From a virus (Duplodnaviria > Caudoviricetes), in IMG/VR virus record IMGVR_UViG_3300020045_012128, positions 1 through 37,855 of that record: DNA of 37,855 nucleotides. The stretch is one strand, 5' to 3'. The notes under the pieces are model-generated. The model ran no database searches. It was not told the DNA's origin and worked only from the letters and a program-made list of their open reading frames with translations. This document shows, piece by piece, positions 920 through 37,855 of the stretch (position 1 is the stretch's first letter; each line of letters opens with the position of its first letter). The translations under genes and the position numbers were made by a program.

Positions 920-961
920 TAAATTAACACTTCGATAATTAACAAATTAACAATTAAAATC

Positions 962-2152
962 ATGATAACATCTTCAACAAAACTATCAATAATAGTTATC
1001 TTTGCAATGAATACACTACTAGCAGTTGTAACAGCTGTCGGTATGACAATTGCACCGTTCATGCTAGTAGAAAACTTAGGCATTTCATTTATACTACTTG
1101 GTGTAATTGAAGGAGTAATGGAAATGTCAAGTAGTTTAATAAAATTAATAAGTGGCGTTGCATTCGACAAAATAAAGAATGTAAAACATTTGTTCCTTAT
1201 TTCCTCAATTCTATCAGCATTATCTAAATTACTACTATTTTTCCCTAATTCTTTAACTATAGTTCTAAGTAAAGGGTTTGAAAGAGTAGGTAACGGTATG
1301 TTTGCCACTCCTAGAGATGCTTATATACTAGAGAATACTAAAGATAGAGGTTTCAGCTATGGATTACTAAATGCCTCTAAAACAGTAGGTTGCGTATTAG
1401 GATCTTTATTAGTAAGTATTTTAGTTTATTGTTCAGGTAATACCTTAGAATCTAATATAAACTATATTGTTTCTATATCCATTATTTTAGCTCTTATAGC
1501 CGCTGTGTTATCTGATTTTATTAAAGGGAGTGAAATAAAGAGGTCAGTAGATAATAGTTTCAGTTTACTAAAAGCTAAAGATCATCTGATCAGTTGTTTT
1601 AGAAATACTAAGATGCAATTAGCTTTACTCCCTATATATTTAGGTGCATTTGTATTCTTTTTAGGGAGATTTAATGATGGAATGTTAATGTTCTATTTAA
1701 AGAATCTAGGGTATCCGTCTTGGTTATATCTATCAACCATTTCTATATTTAATACCGCTATGTTCTTAGTAGCTCCGATTTTAGGTATGTTAATTGATAA
1801 AAAACATACTAAAGTAGTATTAGCCACGACAGTATTTTCGCTATTATTATTTAATGTTATATTTCTATATTTAGCTGAATTACCTAGTTTCTTCGTATTT
1901 ATAGGATTAGGTCTATGGGGCATTCAACGGACAGGAGCTGCAATTATATTCTCTTATTTGTTATTCCAAAAGTCTGAAGATAAGAAAGTTTACGGGACTA
2001 ATTTAGGAATATTATTATTTATTATGGGCATTGGTTCATTATTTGGATCTATGATAGCTGGATATTTAATAACTATAGACTTTCGGTATATATTTCTGTT
2101 TAGCGGAACTTGCGCAACATTATCTGCCTTGACCAGTAGGTATGTGAAATGA
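962..2152 (+). CDS. Major facilitator superfamily (MFS) transporter
   Basis: 396 aa with about 12 hydrophobic segments; motif-A-like GVAFDKIKNVK and GMLIDKKHTK in the two halves; ERVGNGMFATPRDA segment. Confidence 0.9.
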   Translation: MITSSTKLSIIVIFAMNTLLAVVTAVGMTIAPFMLVENLGISFILLGVIEGVMEMSSSLIKLISGVAFDKIKNVKHLFLISSILSALSKLLLFFPNSLTIVLSKGFERVGNGMFATPRDAYILENTKDRGFSYGLLNASKTVGCVLGSLLVSILVYCSGNTLESNINYIVSISIILALIAAVLSDFIKGSEIKRSVDNSFSLLKAKDHLISCFRNTKMQLALLPIYLGAFVFFLGRFNDGMLMFYLKNLGYPSWLYLSTISIFNTAMFLVAPILGMLIDKKHTKVVLATTVFSLLLFNVIFLYLAELPSFFVFIGLGLWGIQRTGAAIIFSYLLFQKSEDKKVYGTNLGILLFIMGIGSLFGSMIAGYLITIDFRYIFLFSGTCATLSALTSRYVK

Positions 2153-3480
2153 GCAGAAAATTACTATTACATGAATATCAAAAGAATTGTGTAAGGCATA
2201 TATATAAAAAAAAGAAAGTAGGTCTTTTTATACCTATGGGTATGGGCAAGACATCTATAACTTTAGTTGCGATAAGTTTATTACTTAGAGACCAGAAAGT
2301 TAAGTCTATACTTATCGTTGCTCCGCTTTACGTTGCTGCCAGTGTATGGCACGTTGAGGCGGCGAAGTGGCTAGTATTAAATCAACTTAAGTTTTCATTA
2401 ATTCTTGGTACTGAAAAACAAAGAGTAGAAGCTCTTAATTCTACAGCTCATGTCTATATTATTAATAGAGAAAACTTAGTTTGGCTATCTAAATTTAAAC
2501 GTAATTTTGATATGATAGTCCTTGATGAATCATCAAGTTTTAAGAATCCATCTACACAAAGATTTAATGCACTTAAGAGAATGAAGAGCGAATACTTAGT
2601 AGCATTAACAGGAACACCTTCGCCTAATGGATTATTAGATCTTTGGTCTCAAGTTTATTTGATGGATAGAGGATTAAGATTAGGAACGTCAATGAAAGAC
2701 TATAAAGAAAAATATTTTAATTCTGATTATATGGGGTTTAACTTTAAACCTAAAGATCCGGAAGCTATTTACAAACAAATTGAAGATATAGTTATATCGA
2801 TGCGTTTAGAAGATTATTTACAACTTCCTGAGCGTATAGATATTATTACTCCTGTTTGCATTGAAAAGACTAAGGAATATAAACAATTGGAAGAAAAGTT
2901 CGTAACCCATATCAATAACTTTGAGATTACAACTTCAAATGCAGCAACTTTAGCCGGTAAATTATTACAGTTTTGTAATGGAGCTGTATACGATGAAGAG
3001 AAGAATATCATTGAAGTTCATAGTTCTAAATTAGATGCATTAGAAGGTCTTATAAACGACAATCCTAACGAAAATGTATTAGTAGCTTATAACTTTAATA
3101 GCGACTTAAAACGTCTTAAAGAAAGGTTTAAATATGCACATGTATTTACAGCTGGTGGAGATATAATTGAACGTTGGAATAAAGGTGAAATAAAGATGTT
3201 ATTATGCCATCCAGCTAGTGCTGGTAAGGGGTTAAACTTACAAGCCGGAGGCTGTAACATAATTTGGTTTGGTTTAACTTGGAACTTAGAAGATTACTTA
3301 CAATTTAATGCAAGGCTTCATAGACAAGGACAGACGAGACCCGTAGTTATAAATCATTTAGTAGCTAAAGGAGGTATGGATGAATTAGTTATGAAAGCCT
3401 TAAGAAATAAAGAGGTTAATCAAAGGGAGCTATTAAATAGTTTAGCAGTTTGTATTAAGGATATTACAGGGCAGATATGA
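2149..3480 (+). CDS. Phage SNF2-family (SF2) helicase
   Basis: MGMGKT (Walker A), VLDESS (Walker B), LTGTP, GKGLNLQ, QFNARLHRQGQ motifs. Confidence 0.95.
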   Translation: MSRKLLLHEYQKNCVRHIYKKKKVGLFIPMGMGKTSITLVAISLLLRDQKVKSILIVAPLYVAASVWHVEAAKWLVLNQLKFSLILGTEKQRVEALNSTAHVYIINRENLVWLSKFKRNFDMIVLDESSSFKNPSTQRFNALKRMKSEYLVALTGTPSPNGLLDLWSQVYLMDRGLRLGTSMKDYKEKYFNSDYMGFNFKPKDPEAIYKQIEDIVISMRLEDYLQLPERIDIITPVCIEKTKEYKQLEEKFVTHINNFEITTSNAATLAGKLLQFCNGAVYDEEKNIIEVHSSKLDALEGLINDNPNENVLVAYNFNSDLKRLKERFKYAHVFTAGGDIIERWNKGEIKMLLCHPASAGKGLNLQAGGCNIIWFGLTWNLEDYLQFNARLHRQGQTRPVVINHLVAKGGMDELVMKALRNKEVNQRELLNSLAVCIKDITGQI

Positions 3481-4964: not shown

Positions 4965-5345
4965 ATGACTGATCATAGAACGCTAAAAGATGATGTACTT
5001 ATAAATAGGGCTATGGGAGAGAAGATTCGTCAACTTAGATTATCTAACAGCTGGTCTCGTACACAAGTCGTTAGACATATAGGAGTATCTAATCAACAGT
5101 TATTAAAATACGAAAGAGGGCAAAATAAAGTATCTATGGGTAGGTTAAAACTAATAGCTAAACTATTCGAAAAACCTATATCTTATTTTTATGAAGAGCC
5201 TAAAATTGATAATTATGCTCCTGAGTTAACTTGTAAACTCGCTACTGGAGTATATAATAATTTTATAAAATTAAAAAACGAAAAACTTAAAAAGTCTATT
5301 AGTAATTTAATTAGAACTTTAGTTGACAATGAATCTAAAGGCTAA
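4965..5345 (+). CDS. XRE/Cro-family HTH transcriptional regulator
   Basis: GEKIRQLRL...IGVSNQQLLKYERGQNKVSMGRL..IA...PISYFYE, the QQ.QKYE.G.N type common in Alphaproteobacteria. Confidence 0.9.
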   Translation: MTDHRTLKDDVLINRAMGEKIRQLRLSNSWSRTQVVRHIGVSNQQLLKYERGQNKVSMGRLKLIAKLFEKPISYFYEEPKIDNYAPELTCKLATGVYNNFIKLKNEKLKKSISNLIRTLVDNESKG

Positions 5346-21869: not shown

Positions 21870-22541
21870 ATGAAATTAAAAGCCGCTATTTTACTAATTA
21901 CTTTATTAACTAGTACTGCTCTTGCAAAAACGGGGGAGTATTATGCTAAAATAAAGGTCTCTAGACATCATCCTTCGGATATTAAAGAAATGGTGGGAAA
22001 ACCTATTGTTTTACCTGGCTTTGCTATAGGTTTTAATTTTACAGATAATGCTAGAGTAGATGTTTCTATTGACCATTTTACAGATATAAAGCATACTGCA
22101 GCTGTTGATAATGATCATCCTGTCCATTCACATATACATACAGTTAAGACTTGTTCTGCCGAAGCCTATTCACCGCCAGCCTACGACTCTATACACCCTG
22201 CATCTATTGTAGTTGAACCAAAGAGAGCTTTATGTACTCATGCTAAAATTACAACTGCAAAAGTTAATCTATTTATTGATTTAATGAAAATTAAAAAGAG
22301 TTCGGTTTTTGTAGGGGCGGGTACAGGTGTATCTAAAATATTAGGGGCTGTAACTGTTGATAAAGTTATTAAACCTATTAAACCATCGTATACAATGGCT
22401 TATGATCTGCATTTCGGTGTTGCACAAAGAATACTTGATGATGTTAATCTAGAGGTCGGATATACTTACCAATATTTAACTAATCATATTTATAATTATA
22501 AAGGGCATAGCCTTGCTAGCTCTATAAGAATAGATCTATAA
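21870..22541 (+). CDS. Outer-membrane 8-stranded beta-barrel protein (Opa/Ail superfamily; resembles Rickettsia Adr1/Adr2)
   Basis: Signal peptide ending TALA; GF.IGF.FTDNARVDV, VFVGAG.G, GVA..I.D.V.LEVGY.Y, terminal YKGHSLASSIRIDL strand; inverted relative to the head genes. Confidence 0.85.
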   Translation: MKLKAAILLITLLTSTALAKTGEYYAKIKVSRHHPSDIKEMVGKPIVLPGFAIGFNFTDNARVDVSIDHFTDIKHTAAVDNDHPVHSHIHTVKTCSAEAYSPPAYDSIHPASIVVEPKRALCTHAKITTAKVNLFIDLMKIKKSSVFVGAGTGVSKILGAVTVDKVIKPIKPSYTMAYDLHFGVAQRILDDVNLEVGYTYQYLTNHIYNYKGHSLASSIRIDL

Positions 22542-29531: not shown

Positions 29532-29584
29532 CCTATAACCAATCGCAACCCAGGTATTAATATTTGACTAAATTAAAAAGGTCA
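29495..29584 (-). ncRNA. Candidate small RNA 2 (about 90 nt)
   Basis: Own promoter upstream; 5' TGAC/GTCA hairpin; ends in an 11-bp hairpin plus U-tract; no substantial ORF seen. Confidence 0.5.
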
Positions 29585-29589
29585 GATTT

Positions 29590-29618
29590 AGTATAATGAA
29601 ATATAGATTACTAAGCAA
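29590..29618 (-). promoter_or_regulatory. Sigma70-type promoter for RNA 2
   Basis: TTGCTT (29618-29613)-17-TATACT (29595-29590). Confidence 0.6.
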
Positions 29619-29620
29619 GT

Positions 29621-29788
29621 AAAAAGGTGCGCAGTAAAAATACATGAATAAAAATACTGCGCAAAAGAGAATCGTCAACCCTAATTACTTAGAGTTGACG
29701 ACAACAAACAATCATGAAGTATATAAAACTTAGCCCCGGATCTTATACGTTAACCCCGCTAACATCTTCAACAAAAATAACAAGGTTA
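29621..29788 (-). ncRNA. Candidate small RNA 1 (about 165 nt, multi-hairpin)
   Basis: Promoter upstream; 13-bp stem 29672-29701 whose G-U pair and GUAA (GNRA) loop form only on the minus strand; terminal TGCGCAGTA/TACTGCGCA stem followed by CCTTTTT. Confidence 0.65.
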
Positions 29789-29793
29789 AAAGC

Positions 29794-29822
29794 ACAATAT
29801 AATCATAGTTAAATACTGTCAA
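29794..29822 (-). promoter_or_regulatory. Sigma70-type promoter for RNA 1
   Basis: TTGACA (29822-29817)-17-TATTGT (29799-29794). Confidence 0.75.
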
Positions 29823-29883
29823 CTATTTTATTTGATTTTTCTTTGTATTTTGTAATTTTTATATACTTTAGACTTATTTTTGT

Positions 29884-31089
29884 TTACCACGCATTTGCAA
29901 TGGTGTAATTAGAACCTTTTCGCTTACTTATTCTTTCAACTGCATATCTTAATGCGTCGATTAAGTGGTTGTTCGCATCTATAATAACTGGTGTAATATC
30001 TCCACTTCTTGCATCGACTTTATATGAATAGGTACTTAGTTCTTTGATCATGTATTCACATCTAGGATGTACCACGATTCTTTCAAATGATCTTAAGAAC
30101 GATATAAGATCTTCCACGCTCCCTTTACCCTTAACTGCTGGGTTAACATTATAACCTTGGTGTCTAAGAAATGAAATATTACCGGGGTTTGCGCTATCAC
30201 ATATAATTAATGATTTTTTAAATCCTTTTATTGCTTCCTCACATCCTCGCCCTATATTGTTAATCTCGACTTGTCTTTTATAATATTCATGACTTACATA
30301 TAAAGTATTATTTACTATATAACATCGAATAGCAGCTGTTGGATCAATAAACCCAAAGTCTAGACCATAATATGCATATATATTATCTGGCTCTTCAAAA
30401 TCATCTACAACCCATTTACCTTTGAATACAAGTGCATCAGAATGTTGTATAGGTTCTCCTTCCCATATATGACGATACATGTCAGGATCACCTTTAAGAT
30501 CTATTTGTCTTAAGTTTTCATTCTCTTGTGTAAAAAATGGATTATTATTCCAATTTACTTTTAATACTAATGAATTAGGGGGAGGTTCATTTATAACAAA
30601 TTTTTTATATATACAATCTTCTTTACTCTGAGGGTTCATACTAACCCATATCTGAGAACCTTCTTTTCTTATAGTGGGAAGTATAGTTCTCCAAGTTTCC
30701 TCACTTAAAGTAGCCGCTTCTTCGATCCAGACATGATCAATGTTAGTCATTGACTTAAGCCCTTCAACATTCATCTTTAATCCTGCGTAAAAAAACTTGC
30801 TACCGTTACGTTTACATATTATTTCATTTTGAAGTATACGAAATGCATCTGTCATTTCCATTTCTTCAATTGAGTCTTTTAAAAGCTGGTGCACTGAATG
30901 GTTCAACTGAACTAAATATTCACGTCCGCATAATATAAGTTGCTTTTTTTCGTAAGCCCTAGCTATAAGGGTTCTAGCAATAGTTGTTGACTTACCTGAT
31001 CCACGGCCACCAACTAGAATGTTATATCGATGATTAGATTGAATAACTTGTTTCCCCCATAAAGGAAACTTTATATTAGACTTTAACAC
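29884..31089 (-). CDS. terL: Terminase large subunit (PBSX/SPP1-like family)
   Basis: GGRGSGKS Walker A, WIEEA Walker B, GLDFGF and NHLIDALRYA nuclease motifs. Confidence 0.97.
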   Translation of the reverse strand: MLKSNIKFPLWGKQVIQSNHRYNILVGGRGSGKSTTIARTLIARAYEKKQLILCGREYLVQLNHSVHQLLKDSIEEMEMTDAFRILQNEIICKRNGSKFFYAGLKMNVEGLKSMTNIDHVWIEEAATLSEETWRTILPTIRKEGSQIWVSMNPQSKEDCIYKKFVINEPPPNSLVLKVNWNNNPFFTQENENLRQIDLKGDPDMYRHIWEGEPIQHSDALVFKGKWVVDDFEEPDNIYAYYGLDFGFIDPTAAIRCYIVNNTLYVSHEYYKRQVEINNIGRGCEEAIKGFKKSLIICDSANPGNISFLRHQGYNVNPAVKGKGSVEDLISFLRSFERIVVHPRCEYMIKELSTYSYKVDARSGDITPVIIDANNHLIDALRYAVERISKRKGSNYTIANAW

Positions 31090-31531
31090 GACTAGAATTA
31101 TATTCTTTTAGAGCATTAGAATAACATTCGAAGGCTTCCTCTTTAGTATTATGATTTTTTTGTAATAATAACTTTTTATCACGTACTAATCTTGCCATCC
31201 ATTTATTATTAGCTTTAACAAACGATATGCCAGCTAATCCAGATTTATTGCGTGATGATTTTTTGAATTCTATTAGATTAGAAGGATTAAGATTTGTTTT
31301 TATTCCGTCTAAATATGTGATATATGATGGCCAATATCCTCTTGTAAAAAAGAATATTATTCTTGATTTATAAACAAAATAATTATTAAGTTTAATCTTT
31401 AAGCATTTACCTTTACCGGCAATCTTACCTTTTTGGATCTTACGATTTATTGTGGTTTTCCAATATAGATTGGAATTTTTGTATTCTAAGAGTTGATTAA
31501 CTATACTAGTTAATTCCGTAGAGTTATACAT
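31076..31531 (-). CDS. HNH-AP2 homing endonuclease homologue, degenerate active site
   Basis: LYWK...GKIAG...GYWP..ITYLDG.KTN..PSNL...NKSG..GI......KW.A layout; ITY replaces IDH and KSR replaces AHR. Confidence 0.75.
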   Translation of the reverse strand: MYNSTELTSIVNQLLEYKNSNLYWKTTINRKIQKGKIAGKGKCLKIKLNNYFVYKSRIIFFFTRGYWPSYITYLDGIKTNLNPSNLIEFKKSSRNKSGLAGISFVKANNKWMARLVRDKKLLLQKNHNTKEEAFECYSNALKEYNSSRVKV

Positions 31532-31623
31532 ATTATTTTTGCTGAAAATGTTATCTCAGCAGTTTACAATAGTTAATCTAATTAATCAATGTAATATTTT
31601 TATATATTAATTGTTATATATTG

Positions 31624-33727: not shown

Positions 33728-33805
33728 ATATCAAGGGTGGGGATAAATTGTCCCTATCCTTTCTCTTCTTCTTATCATTAATTCTAATGATTCAACTAAA
33801 AAGCG
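33728..33805 (+). repeat. 78-bp exact direct repeat, copy 1
   Basis: Identical to 37778-37855. Confidence 0.97.
33734..33770 (+). terminator. Rho-independent terminator
   Basis: AGGGTGGGGATA-aat-TGTCCCTATCCT stem (G-U pairs work on the + strand) followed by TTCTCTTCTT. Confidence 0.7.
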
Positions 33806-34568: not shown

Positions 34569-34597
34569 CGAATCTCAACAAAAATAACGAGCCAATC

Positions 34598-36766
34598 ATG
34601 AAATTTAAAATATCCGTTGTTACGAATTTTCGTGACAACCAACCATCCGATAAAACCCTGACCTATGACGAACTGGAAAAGCTATTAACCACTTTTCCTA
34701 TGAACGTAAAACCTAAAGATCAAAGTAGAGGCTTTATAGCCGGACATTTTGGAAAATCACAGCGCTTAACGACAAATTTACTTAGCAGAACGCTAATAAC
34801 TCTAGACGTAGATCATTACAATAGCGATTTAACGAGCTTAGACGCCCTTTTAACGAGAGATTTAGAGGGTCAACGGTACATTGCCTATTCAACCTCATCT
34901 CATACGTTTAAAAGGCCTAAAATCAGGATTGTCGTATTACTAGAAAAAGATATACCGACTGAACATTATAGAACCGTAGCATTGAACTATATAGAAACTT
35001 TGCAATTAAGACCGTACCTTGACATAGATTCATCTACAAAACCTAATCAACTTATGTACCTGCCTAATAGACCTAATGACCAATATATCGAGTGGTCTAG
35101 GATAGAAAATGGCGATTTATTAAACCCAGATTATTATTGCGTTGATTATAGTTTTCCTGATCTAGTAGATGATATACAAGGATTAGTTGCTATTAAGCAT
35201 AAAAAAGTAAAATCGGTTGATAAAAAAGTTAATTTAGATAATATGTTATTAACTATTAGAAACCAACCTTTAGATATAAAAGATAATAAAATAAGAGATA
35301 TTCTAAGTTCTTATAAAGCTGAAAACGTAGACTACAAATCATGGATTGAAGTGGGTATGGCTTTATCACATCAATATCAAGGATTAATCGAAGGAGCTCA
35401 ACTATGGTATGATTGGTCTAAATTAGATCCTAGAGATGATCATAAACATAGATTAGATAAAATAAAATATAAGTGGAACACATTTGGCGAATCTATTAAT
35501 CCAATTAAATTTTCGACAATTATAAAAAAATCTCAACAAAATAAAGTTATGAAAATAAATACTAAAGTAACTCCGATTGATATCATGACGTCAACTTTGT
35601 CTAGAACTAAATTTATTCATACTACGGGAGAAAAGCTATCGCCTCTTAATACGATAGAAAACTTTATGGTTATATTGAAGGAATACAATATTTCAATTAA
35701 TTTCGATATAATCTTAAAAAGGAAGGAAGTGTATTTTAATGATGTTTTAGAACTAGATTTAAATATCGCACAAACAAAAATTGAAAGTCTATGCATTCAA
35801 AACGGGATGTCTGCAGTTTCCGTCGCTAAATACATGGACTTTATTAAAGTTGAAACTAATAGTTGGCATGAATGGATTAAGTCAAAGGCTTGGGATGGGA
35901 AGGATCGATTATCTGATTTATATAATACGGTTGAAGTAGATCCGGAATATGTGGAACTTAAATGCAAGTATCTAAAAGCTTGGTTTATGCAAATGATACA
36001 TCTTAGTTGTTTAAATGACGGAGAAAATGGAAAGATGGGACGTTCTGTTTTGGTATTCCAAGGTGATCAGCGTATAGGTAAAACAAGTTGGTTTAAAGCC
36101 TTATGCCCTAAGACTCATCAAAAATACCTTCAAGAAGGGATGATGCTTGATACTAAAGATTCTATGAGTGTTTTAGGATGTATACAGAATGTATTTGTTG
36201 AATTAGGAGAATTAGGATCTACATTTAAAAAATCTGATTCTGATAATCTTAAAAACTTTATTAGTAGTACTACGGATCTAATAAACGTAAAGTACGTTGC
36301 TAATCATGTTTCCTATCGCAGACGAACAGTATTTTTTGCCTCTATAAATGATCATGTTTTTTTGCAAGATACTACAGGCAATACACGTTACTTAATACTT
36401 CCTGTATTAAGTTGTAACTTTAATCATGATATCGATATGCAGCAATTATACGCGCAACTTTATGTAATGGCTAAAAATGGAGATGGTTACGAGCTTGACA
36501 ATGAGTCATTAATAAAACAAAAGGATTTAAATAGTGAATTTGAGAATCCAAGCTACTTAGAAGAGAAGTTTTTAAGTATTTTTAATACTGAGCTTGAATC
36601 TAGAAGTAACATACTAAATATACCTAGTATCTTAGAGTTACTAGGTATAGTGCCAAGTTCAATAAAACAATCGCATATGACCGAGATGTCAAGAATTCTT
36701 AAGAACCTAGGTTACACTAAGCGTTCAAACAAACCTAGACATTGGCAATTACCTCCACGTAGATAA
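34598..36766 (+). CDS. Primase-helicase (N-terminal primase, PriCT-2, VirE/VapE SF3 helicase)
   Basis: ITLDVD / YST.SH...PK.R primase motifs; DY..W..VGMAL...W.DWS PriCT-2; QGDQRIGKT Walker A, ELGEL, LK.FIS, L.D.TGN.RY. Confidence 0.93.
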   Translation: MKFKISVVTNFRDNQPSDKTLTYDELEKLLTTFPMNVKPKDQSRGFIAGHFGKSQRLTTNLLSRTLITLDVDHYNSDLTSLDALLTRDLEGQRYIAYSTSSHTFKRPKIRIVVLLEKDIPTEHYRTVALNYIETLQLRPYLDIDSSTKPNQLMYLPNRPNDQYIEWSRIENGDLLNPDYYCVDYSFPDLVDDIQGLVAIKHKKVKSVDKKVNLDNMLLTIRNQPLDIKDNKIRDILSSYKAENVDYKSWIEVGMALSHQYQGLIEGAQLWYDWSKLDPRDDHKHRLDKIKYKWNTFGESINPIKFSTIIKKSQQNKVMKINTKVTPIDIMTSTLSRTKFIHTTGEKLSPLNTIENFMVILKEYNISINFDIILKRKEVYFNDVLELDLNIAQTKIESLCIQNGMSAVSVAKYMDFIKVETNSWHEWIKSKAWDGKDRLSDLYNTVEVDPEYVELKCKYLKAWFMQMIHLSCLNDGENGKMGRSVLVFQGDQRIGKTSWFKALCPKTHQKYLQEGMMLDTKDSMSVLGCIQNVFVELGELGSTFKKSDSDNLKNFISSTTDLINVKYVANHVSYRRRTVFFASINDHVFLQDTTGNTRYLILPVLSCNFNHDIDMQQLYAQLYVMAKNGDGYELDNESLIKQKDLNSEFENPSYLEEKFLSIFNTELESRSNILNIPSILELLGIVPSSIKQSHMTEMSRILKNLGYTKRSNKPRHWQLPPRR

Positions 36767-37555: not shown

Positions 37556-37855
37556 ATGAAAATAAAATGAGAGAAATTTGTCAATATGTTTTAACTAACG
37601 TCTTAACAACAGCTGCCAATAATTTAGTTATTGAGGCTACTATATGTTTTAACATAGTTAATCAAAATGAAAATGAGTCTAGATTTAGACAAAGCAAATT
37701 CATGAAAGTAATTAATCTTATTAAAAGATCAATTTACTATTTCAAGCCACGGGATAAGGTTATGGAGTTGGATAATTATATCAAGGGTGGGGATAAATTG
37801 TCCCTATCCTTTCTCTTCTTCTTATCATTAATTCTAATGATTCAACTAAAAAGCG
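37543..37855 (+). CDS. Hypothetical protein, open to the window end (not in ORF track)
   Basis: MANLDENKMREICQY...DKVMELDNYIKGGDKLSLSF... with no stop; reads into the 78-bp repeat. Confidence 0.6.
   Translation, partial: MANLDENKMREICQYVLTNVLTTAANNLVIEATICFNIVNQNENESRFRQSKFMKVINLIKRSIYYFKPRDKVMELDNYIKGGDKLSLSFLFFLSLILMIQLKS
37778..37855 (+). repeat. 78-bp exact direct repeat, copy 2 (window end)
   Basis: Identical to 33728-33805; offset 4,050 bp. Confidence 0.97.

Follow-up and report, generated by a model that had tools for sequence, protein, structure and literature searches.

The C4 RNA of phages P1 and P7 is cut from a precursor by RNase P and acts on the antirepressor operon with which it is transcribed, and the RNA-OUT of IS10 is encoded opposite its single target. 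As described in the available part of the source, C4 carries two single-stranded segments (a' and b'), one of which pairs over the ribosome-binding region and the other upstream of it for specificity (PMC5320573). The CI RNA of phage P4 is cut from the transcript that it controls and pairs with the flanking seqA and seqC, which results in early termination (PMC4825925, available sections). In IS10, the loop of the RNA-OUT hairpin makes first contact with the mRNA at its unstructured 5' end, and the duplex then grows to include the ribosome-binding site (PMC4737173, available sections). Further, several phage RNAs, including sar of P22, OOP and aQ of lambda, 24B_1, VpdS and PreS, are described in the accessible part of a review as tuning lysis, lysogeny or replication by pairing (PMC12197685).

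Here we consider a unit that sits between the terminase and portal genes of an uncultured tailed phage. The window, meaning the whole stretch of 37,855 nucleotides that was analysed, is an incomplete genome. We put at roughly 0.6 the probability that the unit encodes a trans-acting antisense RNA of 125-170 nt, the hairpin-1 loop of which would pair with the starts of the primase-helicase, HNH and MFS genes and block their translation together. The features of the window on which this reading draws are as follows, the hairpins and targets being predicted.

31089-29884: terminase gene
29794-29822, minus strand: sigma-70-type promoter TTGACA-17-TATTGT (-35 box 29822-29817, -10 box 29799-29794), 10 of 12 consensus positions
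29751-29788, minus strand: hairpin 1, 11-bp stem and 16-nt U-rich loop (29777-29762); the loop and the inner part of the 5' arm make up seed 1
29721-29748, minus strand: hairpin 2, weak, 9 bp; a hairpin stands at the equivalent place in the related contigs L003 and L004
29703-29720, minus strand: single-stranded linker with seed 2 (anti-AUG; core 29718-29709)
29671-29702, minus strand: hairpin 3, 14-bp stem and GUAA tetraloop; possible terminator
29621-29663, minus strand: hairpin 4, large loop with UCAU, then a U tail; possible 3' end and weak third seed
29355-27835: portal gene
34575-34602, plus strand: predicted target 1, leader and AUG of the primase-helicase gene (ORF 34598-36766; PriCT_2 and VapE-like domains)
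31531-31553, minus strand: predicted target 2, entire leader of the HNH gene (ORF 31531-31076); 23 contiguous pairs, 3 of them G-U
958-982, plus strand: predicted target 3, start of the MFS transporter gene (ORF 962-2152); 17 perfect pairs at 966-982 (codons 2-7)
2149-3480: SNF2 helicase gene, its start overlapped by the stop of the MFS ORF 962-2152

On the evidence of sequence, the unit is best read as an antisense RNA of a new family, encoded in trans to its several targets, that would work like C4 and RNA-OUT and belong to neither. The original prediction had likened it to P1/P7 C4 and P4 CI; this is apt for its predicted working, but by the features compared below the unit falls outside both groups. 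As in C4, which in the available text has a role in immunity and lysogeny, there are two segments and variable seeds on a kept scaffold (PMC5320573), and the two segments, predicted to be unpaired, would lie upstream of and over the ribosome-binding region, both on the primase gene and on an HD-domain gene of L003. Unlike C4, the RNA has no match to a C4-type covariance model of Rfam in the window or the related loci, is predicted to be a linear row of hairpins instead of a ~77-nt three-stem fold, and has its own promoter and three unrelated targets 1.7-28.8 kb from its gene. Like P4 CI, as presented in the available sections, it would be an RNA that keeps replication genes of its own phage silent by pairing (PMC4825925), but its targets (958-982, 31531-31553 and 34575-34602) are start regions of other transcription units and none of them flanks the RNA within one leader. 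The geometry of RNA-OUT fits the HNH and primase genes, for which the transcription start sites are predicted only, and the MFS site is internal; unlike RNA-OUT, the RNA is encoded apart from its targets (the nearest at 1.7 kb), pairs imperfectly and has several predicted targets. The other phage RNAs, as far as the accessible part of the review describes them, differ in that they act on one phage gene or need Hfq and address partly host mRNAs, and that part contains no case of one loop for several of the phage's own starts and none encoded between terminase and portal (PMC12197685). A search of mostly open-access papers returned no description of this RNA. Rfam likewise gives no family: the unit had no match at E<=10 except two unrelated weak ones, and 6 related loci had none.

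The hairpin unit itself is real and conserved. Its near-consensus promoter can be read directly at the place where it had been predicted. The region has no excess of promoter-like sites (28 observed against 33.3 expected), so the support for this promoter is its conservation in two relatives, the viral contigs L003 and L004, which have the closest portals (56% and 59%, respectively) and in which the unit likewise precedes the portal gene. Both repeat the promoter layout of the window: the -35 box is identical, TTAA follows it at a distance of 4 nt, and 6 nt separate the -10 box from the hairpin-1 motif. The TTAA (29812-29809, minus strand, in the window) is invariant in all three promoters and could be the half-site of a host regulator such as CtrA, with a spacing that is not canonical. 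The whole unit is predicted to fold into four hairpins and one single-stranded linker, with a folding z of -4.95 that none of 200 shuffles equalled, and the homologues reach -7.65 (L003) and -4.46 (L004). A row of three to four separate hairpins is predicted in all three. In hairpin 1, 30 of 31 cells are paired across the homologues and 3 of 11 pairs have changed on both sides; this covariation, taken from three distinct sequences, is not significant alone (35 of 500 shuffles were as high). The predicted GNRA-capped stem is present at 29702-29671, with 14 pairs rather than the 13 given earlier. A transcript of ~165 nt with a terminator had also been proposed, and the end of the last hairpin does give ~167 nt; it is the GUAA stem, not the last hairpin, that scored terminator-like. 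The 3' end is thus uncertain, lying after hairpin 3 (~125 nt) or after hairpin 4 (~167 nt). L004 has a similar hairpin 3 followed by a U run. A small peptide encoded in the RNA was considered and rejected by eye: the frame has 8 codons in the window, and the homologues show no conservation. The unit is followed by another strong terminator and by a promoter-like site close to the portal gene.

The two pairings originally described are both present as predicted, with 17 pairs (one G-U) between seed 1 (29784-29768) and the primase leader (34575-34591) and 10 of 10 between seed 2 (29718-29709) and 34593-34602. Seven of the 17 seed-1 bases belong to the 5' arm of hairpin 1 (29788-29751) and 10 to its loop. 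The two seeds are not collinear, and looping of the linker was expected on that account; pairing of both at once could leave the stem closed, with the 5' part of the leader taken up by the loop and the AUG by the extended linker. As for the further claim that the pairing begins about at the predicted primase transcription start, no primase promoter is among the sites listed, so that start is a presumed one. That the primase is the sole or main target is not supported, since seed 1 pairs better with the HNH and MFS start regions, which the first reading had overlooked. The HNH gene is the strongest predicted seed-1 target. For the loop alone the energies are -19.3 (HNH), -19.9 (MFS) and -12.5 (primase). 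The extended linker contributes a further -18.9 kcal/mol on the primase, whose combined seed 1 and seed 2 energy is the best (-38.6, next -33.9). Eight nucleotides of seed 2 pair over the MFS AUG. All three window targets are predicted to be unpaired or weakly folded. The N-terminal stretch matched by seed 1 is absent from the MFS relatives in two other contigs (L236 and L229). The HNH ORF ends within the terminase start, and directly upstream of its leader is a promoter-like TTGATT-17-TAAACT that is common to L004. The core of seed 2, TCATGA, is palindromic, and 11 contiguous nucleotides of seed 2 are identical in sense to the portal start.

The same motif could instead be a DNA operator for a phage or host repressor behind the RNA, primase and HNH promoters, with the complementarity a by-product of motif orientation. 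Three of the four motif copies do lie directly behind a predicted -10 box, and the window encodes an HTH_3 protein (4965-5345). We nevertheless hold an operator to be unlikely: the motif is not palindromic, it is in sense at all three genes and antisense in the RNA only, its MFS copy is within coding sequence, and in the RNA it is part of a hairpin kept in three phages. In addition, the HNH and primase helices deviate from a perfect match at four positions, all G-U-compatible, which is weak evidence because transitions are common. By fitting RNA-RNA pairing, the G-U pairs also speak against a scheme in which the RNA activates its targets or directs a protein to DNA of matching sequence and so blocks transcription. 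The position of the sites at predicted transcription starts would suit such a scheme, but the targets are without an inhibitory structure that could be opened, and no RNA-guided effector was found among the 26 ORFs scanned in the incomplete window; we regard it as very improbable.

In favour of translational repression by pairing, the reading we prefer, stand the three start regions taken together. On both strands of the window, the top three helices are those with HNH, MFS and primase, all of them sense-strand start regions, and the same three lead by duplex energy. Scored among 46 start regions, the three reach 22.4, 22.1 and 18.3 (primase), with the next at 14.4, and the opposite strand of these regions gives at best 13.0. 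A third-best score of 18.3 was reached by none of 2000 dinucleotide shuffles of the whole RNA; among mock RNAs made from 898 window tiles it was reached only by the two that cover the RNA unit (next 15.2). The outcome of the shuffled control foreseen in the original prediction is therefore split, since three start regions at once stand out and the primase match alone does not stand far out: its score was met at some start by 54 of 2000 shuffles (p ~0.03), which is modest. Duplex energies over 53 starts are -25.9, -22.8 and -22.3, next -14.3 (0 of 150 shuffles); genome-wide the margin is thin, with the primase at -22.3 against a non-start site at -21.4. For the MFS match, 17 exact bases anywhere in the window were found in 1 of 3000 hairpin-1 shuffles. 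As a separate seed, which is how it had been presented, seed 2 ranks the primase first and is not above chance alone (10 of 150 shuffles); with one mismatch allowed it has 5 sites against 3.67 expected. Seed 3, in the loop of hairpin 4, pairs no better than chance in the window (38 of 150 shuffles) and is borderline in L003, on that contig's own lysozyme start (7 of 150); the limits of the seeds were set after the matches had been seen.

The homologue in L003 provides independent evidence. Its changed seed finds its best start in the leader of its own HD-domain (HD-hydrolase) gene, at -22.8 against -12.4 for the next of 43 starts (0 of 150 shuffles), and this target is also first genome-wide, by 0.9 kcal/mol only (-22.8 versus -21.9). 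The L003 linker is complementary at 9 of 9 positions to the AUG region of that gene, a match which alone was equalled in 63 of 150 shuffles, and the pairing repeats the loop-plus-linker layout of the window primase. Four seed positions differ between the window and L003; three keep their pair through a changed partner and one is bulged, the targets being different genes. On 4 of 4 targets the own seed is better than the foreign seed. In L004, by comparison, no start stands out among 43 (46 of 150 shuffles); this contig has an HNH gene, and its leader does not match the L004 seed. The best L004 match is a perfect 15-mer inside a late virion coding sequence (L004:15937-15951; 9 of 3000 shuffles), which our model leaves unexplained. 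The complementarity expected of homologues thus appears in one and not in the other, and, as both records are fragments that lack the primase and MFS genes, no target is shown to be conserved.

The L004 result, together with the modest primase score (p ~0.03) in an AT-rich genome, would suit a cassette, either a structured RNA or a terminator, whose function is to insulate the portal operon or to act on mRNAs of the host or of other phages, some or all of the matches within the genome being AT-rich chance. The further strong terminator and portal-proximal promoter-like site that follow the unit point the same way. Such a cassette seems to us improbable, because three start regions at once occurred in none of 2000 shuffles and the independent L003 start-region match in none of 150. 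Of the original proposal of a trans-encoded antisense RNA, what stands is the conserved structured non-coding unit, the strand-specific match to the primase start and the two-segment layout recurring in L003; the exclusive aim at the primase does not.

A fourth homologue was not found. Below E=1, model R2 recovered nothing in 81 sources beyond the three sequences on which it had been trained, and it found no match in 131 Rickettsiaceae genomes (one partly scored) or in 30 further pattern loci. Pattern scans gave 3 and 31 loci, among which only the L003 and L004 homologues hold. One model match, in contig L249, was rejected, as it is antisense inside a capsid gene. Close relatives of the primase (57-78% identity) are known as proteins; single-protein scans of viral contigs yielded no close relative, and an annotated phage collection contained distant primases only. 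Near-identical DNA assemblies of low depth are among the matches listed: within these matches, one piece has 0 differences over 29565-29715, a second has 3 over 29722-30046 (2 of them in the terminase), and the primase has 17 in 306. The two near-identical assemblies are too close for covariation. In seven more distant primase-bearing records, the score of a non-coding antisense element against the primase start never exceeded 15.0 (18.3 in the window).

Three of these seven records have a hairpin in the primase leader itself (L006:447-520, minus strand; L115:236-299; L153:392-452), with a pyrimidine-rich loop complementary to the 8-10 bases just 5' of the AUG. Stem changes between L006 and L115 keep the pairing, and the L153 sequence is different. 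To judge from these sequences, the hairpin may possibly form a pseudoknot or act as a switch. The window primase leader has no such hairpin and is predicted to be unpaired, and we infer that the trans RNA replaces the cis hairpin of the relatives. After the terminase, other promoter-driven rows of large-loop hairpins occur, namely at L005:3795-4070 (four), L006:3373-3592 (three) and L007:7496-7625. Several of these loops contain an anti-AUG stretch; they had no strong target in the fragments examined and were not detected by model R2.

Leader hairpins that match pre-AUG bases point to RNA control of the primase in the wider family, and with the combined seed energy, which favours the primase (-38.6 versus -33.9), they speak for the role first proposed, a late RNA that is aimed at the primase leader and switches the phage from replication to packaging. 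That role is nonetheless quite unlikely, because the HNH gene, which overlaps the terminase start, is itself a predicted target and the strongest for seed 1; the promoter, moreover, is of the plain sigma-70 consensus type and has no sign of late control. Since the HNH gene overlaps the terminase start and the MFS gene the SNF2 start, the RNA would damp entry into packaging besides replication, which suggests a general brake, like P4 CI in effect, rather than a switch.

As a multi-target brake, the RNA would be made by the host sigma-70 polymerase from the moment of infection. Its exposed loop would catch an unstructured target, which for HNH and primase is at or near the mRNA 5' end, and the pairing would then zip into the 5' arm of hairpin 1. 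On the primase mRNA, the single-stranded linker would also cover the AUG, and the stem could stay closed. Translational coupling at the HNH/terminase and MFS/SNF2 helicase overlaps could extend the block. The outcome would be a dose-dependent brake on replication, packaging entry and an accessory gene, serving a quiet or carrier state or acting against a superinfecting relative. Helices of 17-23 bp would work without Hfq. Hfq was found in none of the 4 incomplete genomes of candidate hosts, all Rickettsiaceae, that contain portal relatives, and Rickettsia species are not known to encode it, according to the available part of the source (PMC4896933); such an absence fits the long helices.

A wider and more tentative idea, which we hold to be possible and rather doubtful, is a family of reprogrammable anti-start RNAs in Rickettsiales phages: a fixed scaffold beside the terminase, with loop and linker rewritten in each phage for its own replication, nuclease and accessory genes, would serve as an Hfq-free, RNA-only master repressor. 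It may have originated when the cis primase-start hairpin of the relatives moved out to act in trans. If the multi-target antisense reading is right, a single small phage RNA would use long loop pairing to coordinate replication, entry into packaging and an accessory transporter, in hosts that seemingly have no Hfq, and its seeds would change with the gene content of each phage. The way in which phages of slow-growing intracellular bacteria stay quiet would then have a testable model, and the RNA-leader pairs would be compact, orthogonal and open to assay in E. coli.

Portal relatives are present in a Rickettsiaceae contig and in 4 of 130 Rickettsiaceae genomes, which makes a Rickettsiales host probable; by sequence relationship, the window phage and its relatives are probably phages of Rickettsiaceae. 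Relatives with both portal and primase are 45-48 kb long, so that ~8-10 kb are probably missing from the window. No integrase was found among the 26 ORFs tested in the incomplete window or the 35 tested in relatives, and a search for tRNA and tmRNA genes found none. An exact 78-nt direct repeat (33728-33805 and 37778-37855, the contig end) flanks a 4050-bp unit with the primase-helicase gene, which may be a circular sub-unit. The hairpin of this repeat recurs upstream of the primase in contig L235, so the repeat may be a genuine terminator, present in more than one copy, at which the assembly broke.

Between the unit and the portal gene lies a possible second small RNA (29583-29490, minus strand) with a promoter-like site and a strong terminator; its best start-region score is 14.7, a figure with no shuffles behind it, and none is outstanding. 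Its possible counterpart in L003 (1105-1260) differs in sequence. The accessory MFS transporter gene (962-2152) and a probable outer-membrane beta-barrel gene (21870-22541) are both common to relatives, the latter label being given by resemblance, as Pfam gave no match for the window copy. Two further relatives (L242:7153-8378, G364:C2, and L227:8091-8765, G005) have the same head-tail module and carry ParA; one of them also encodes a Fic protein, an ankyrin and a ProQ/FinO RNA chaperone. The two are possibly phage-plasmids of Rickettsiales.
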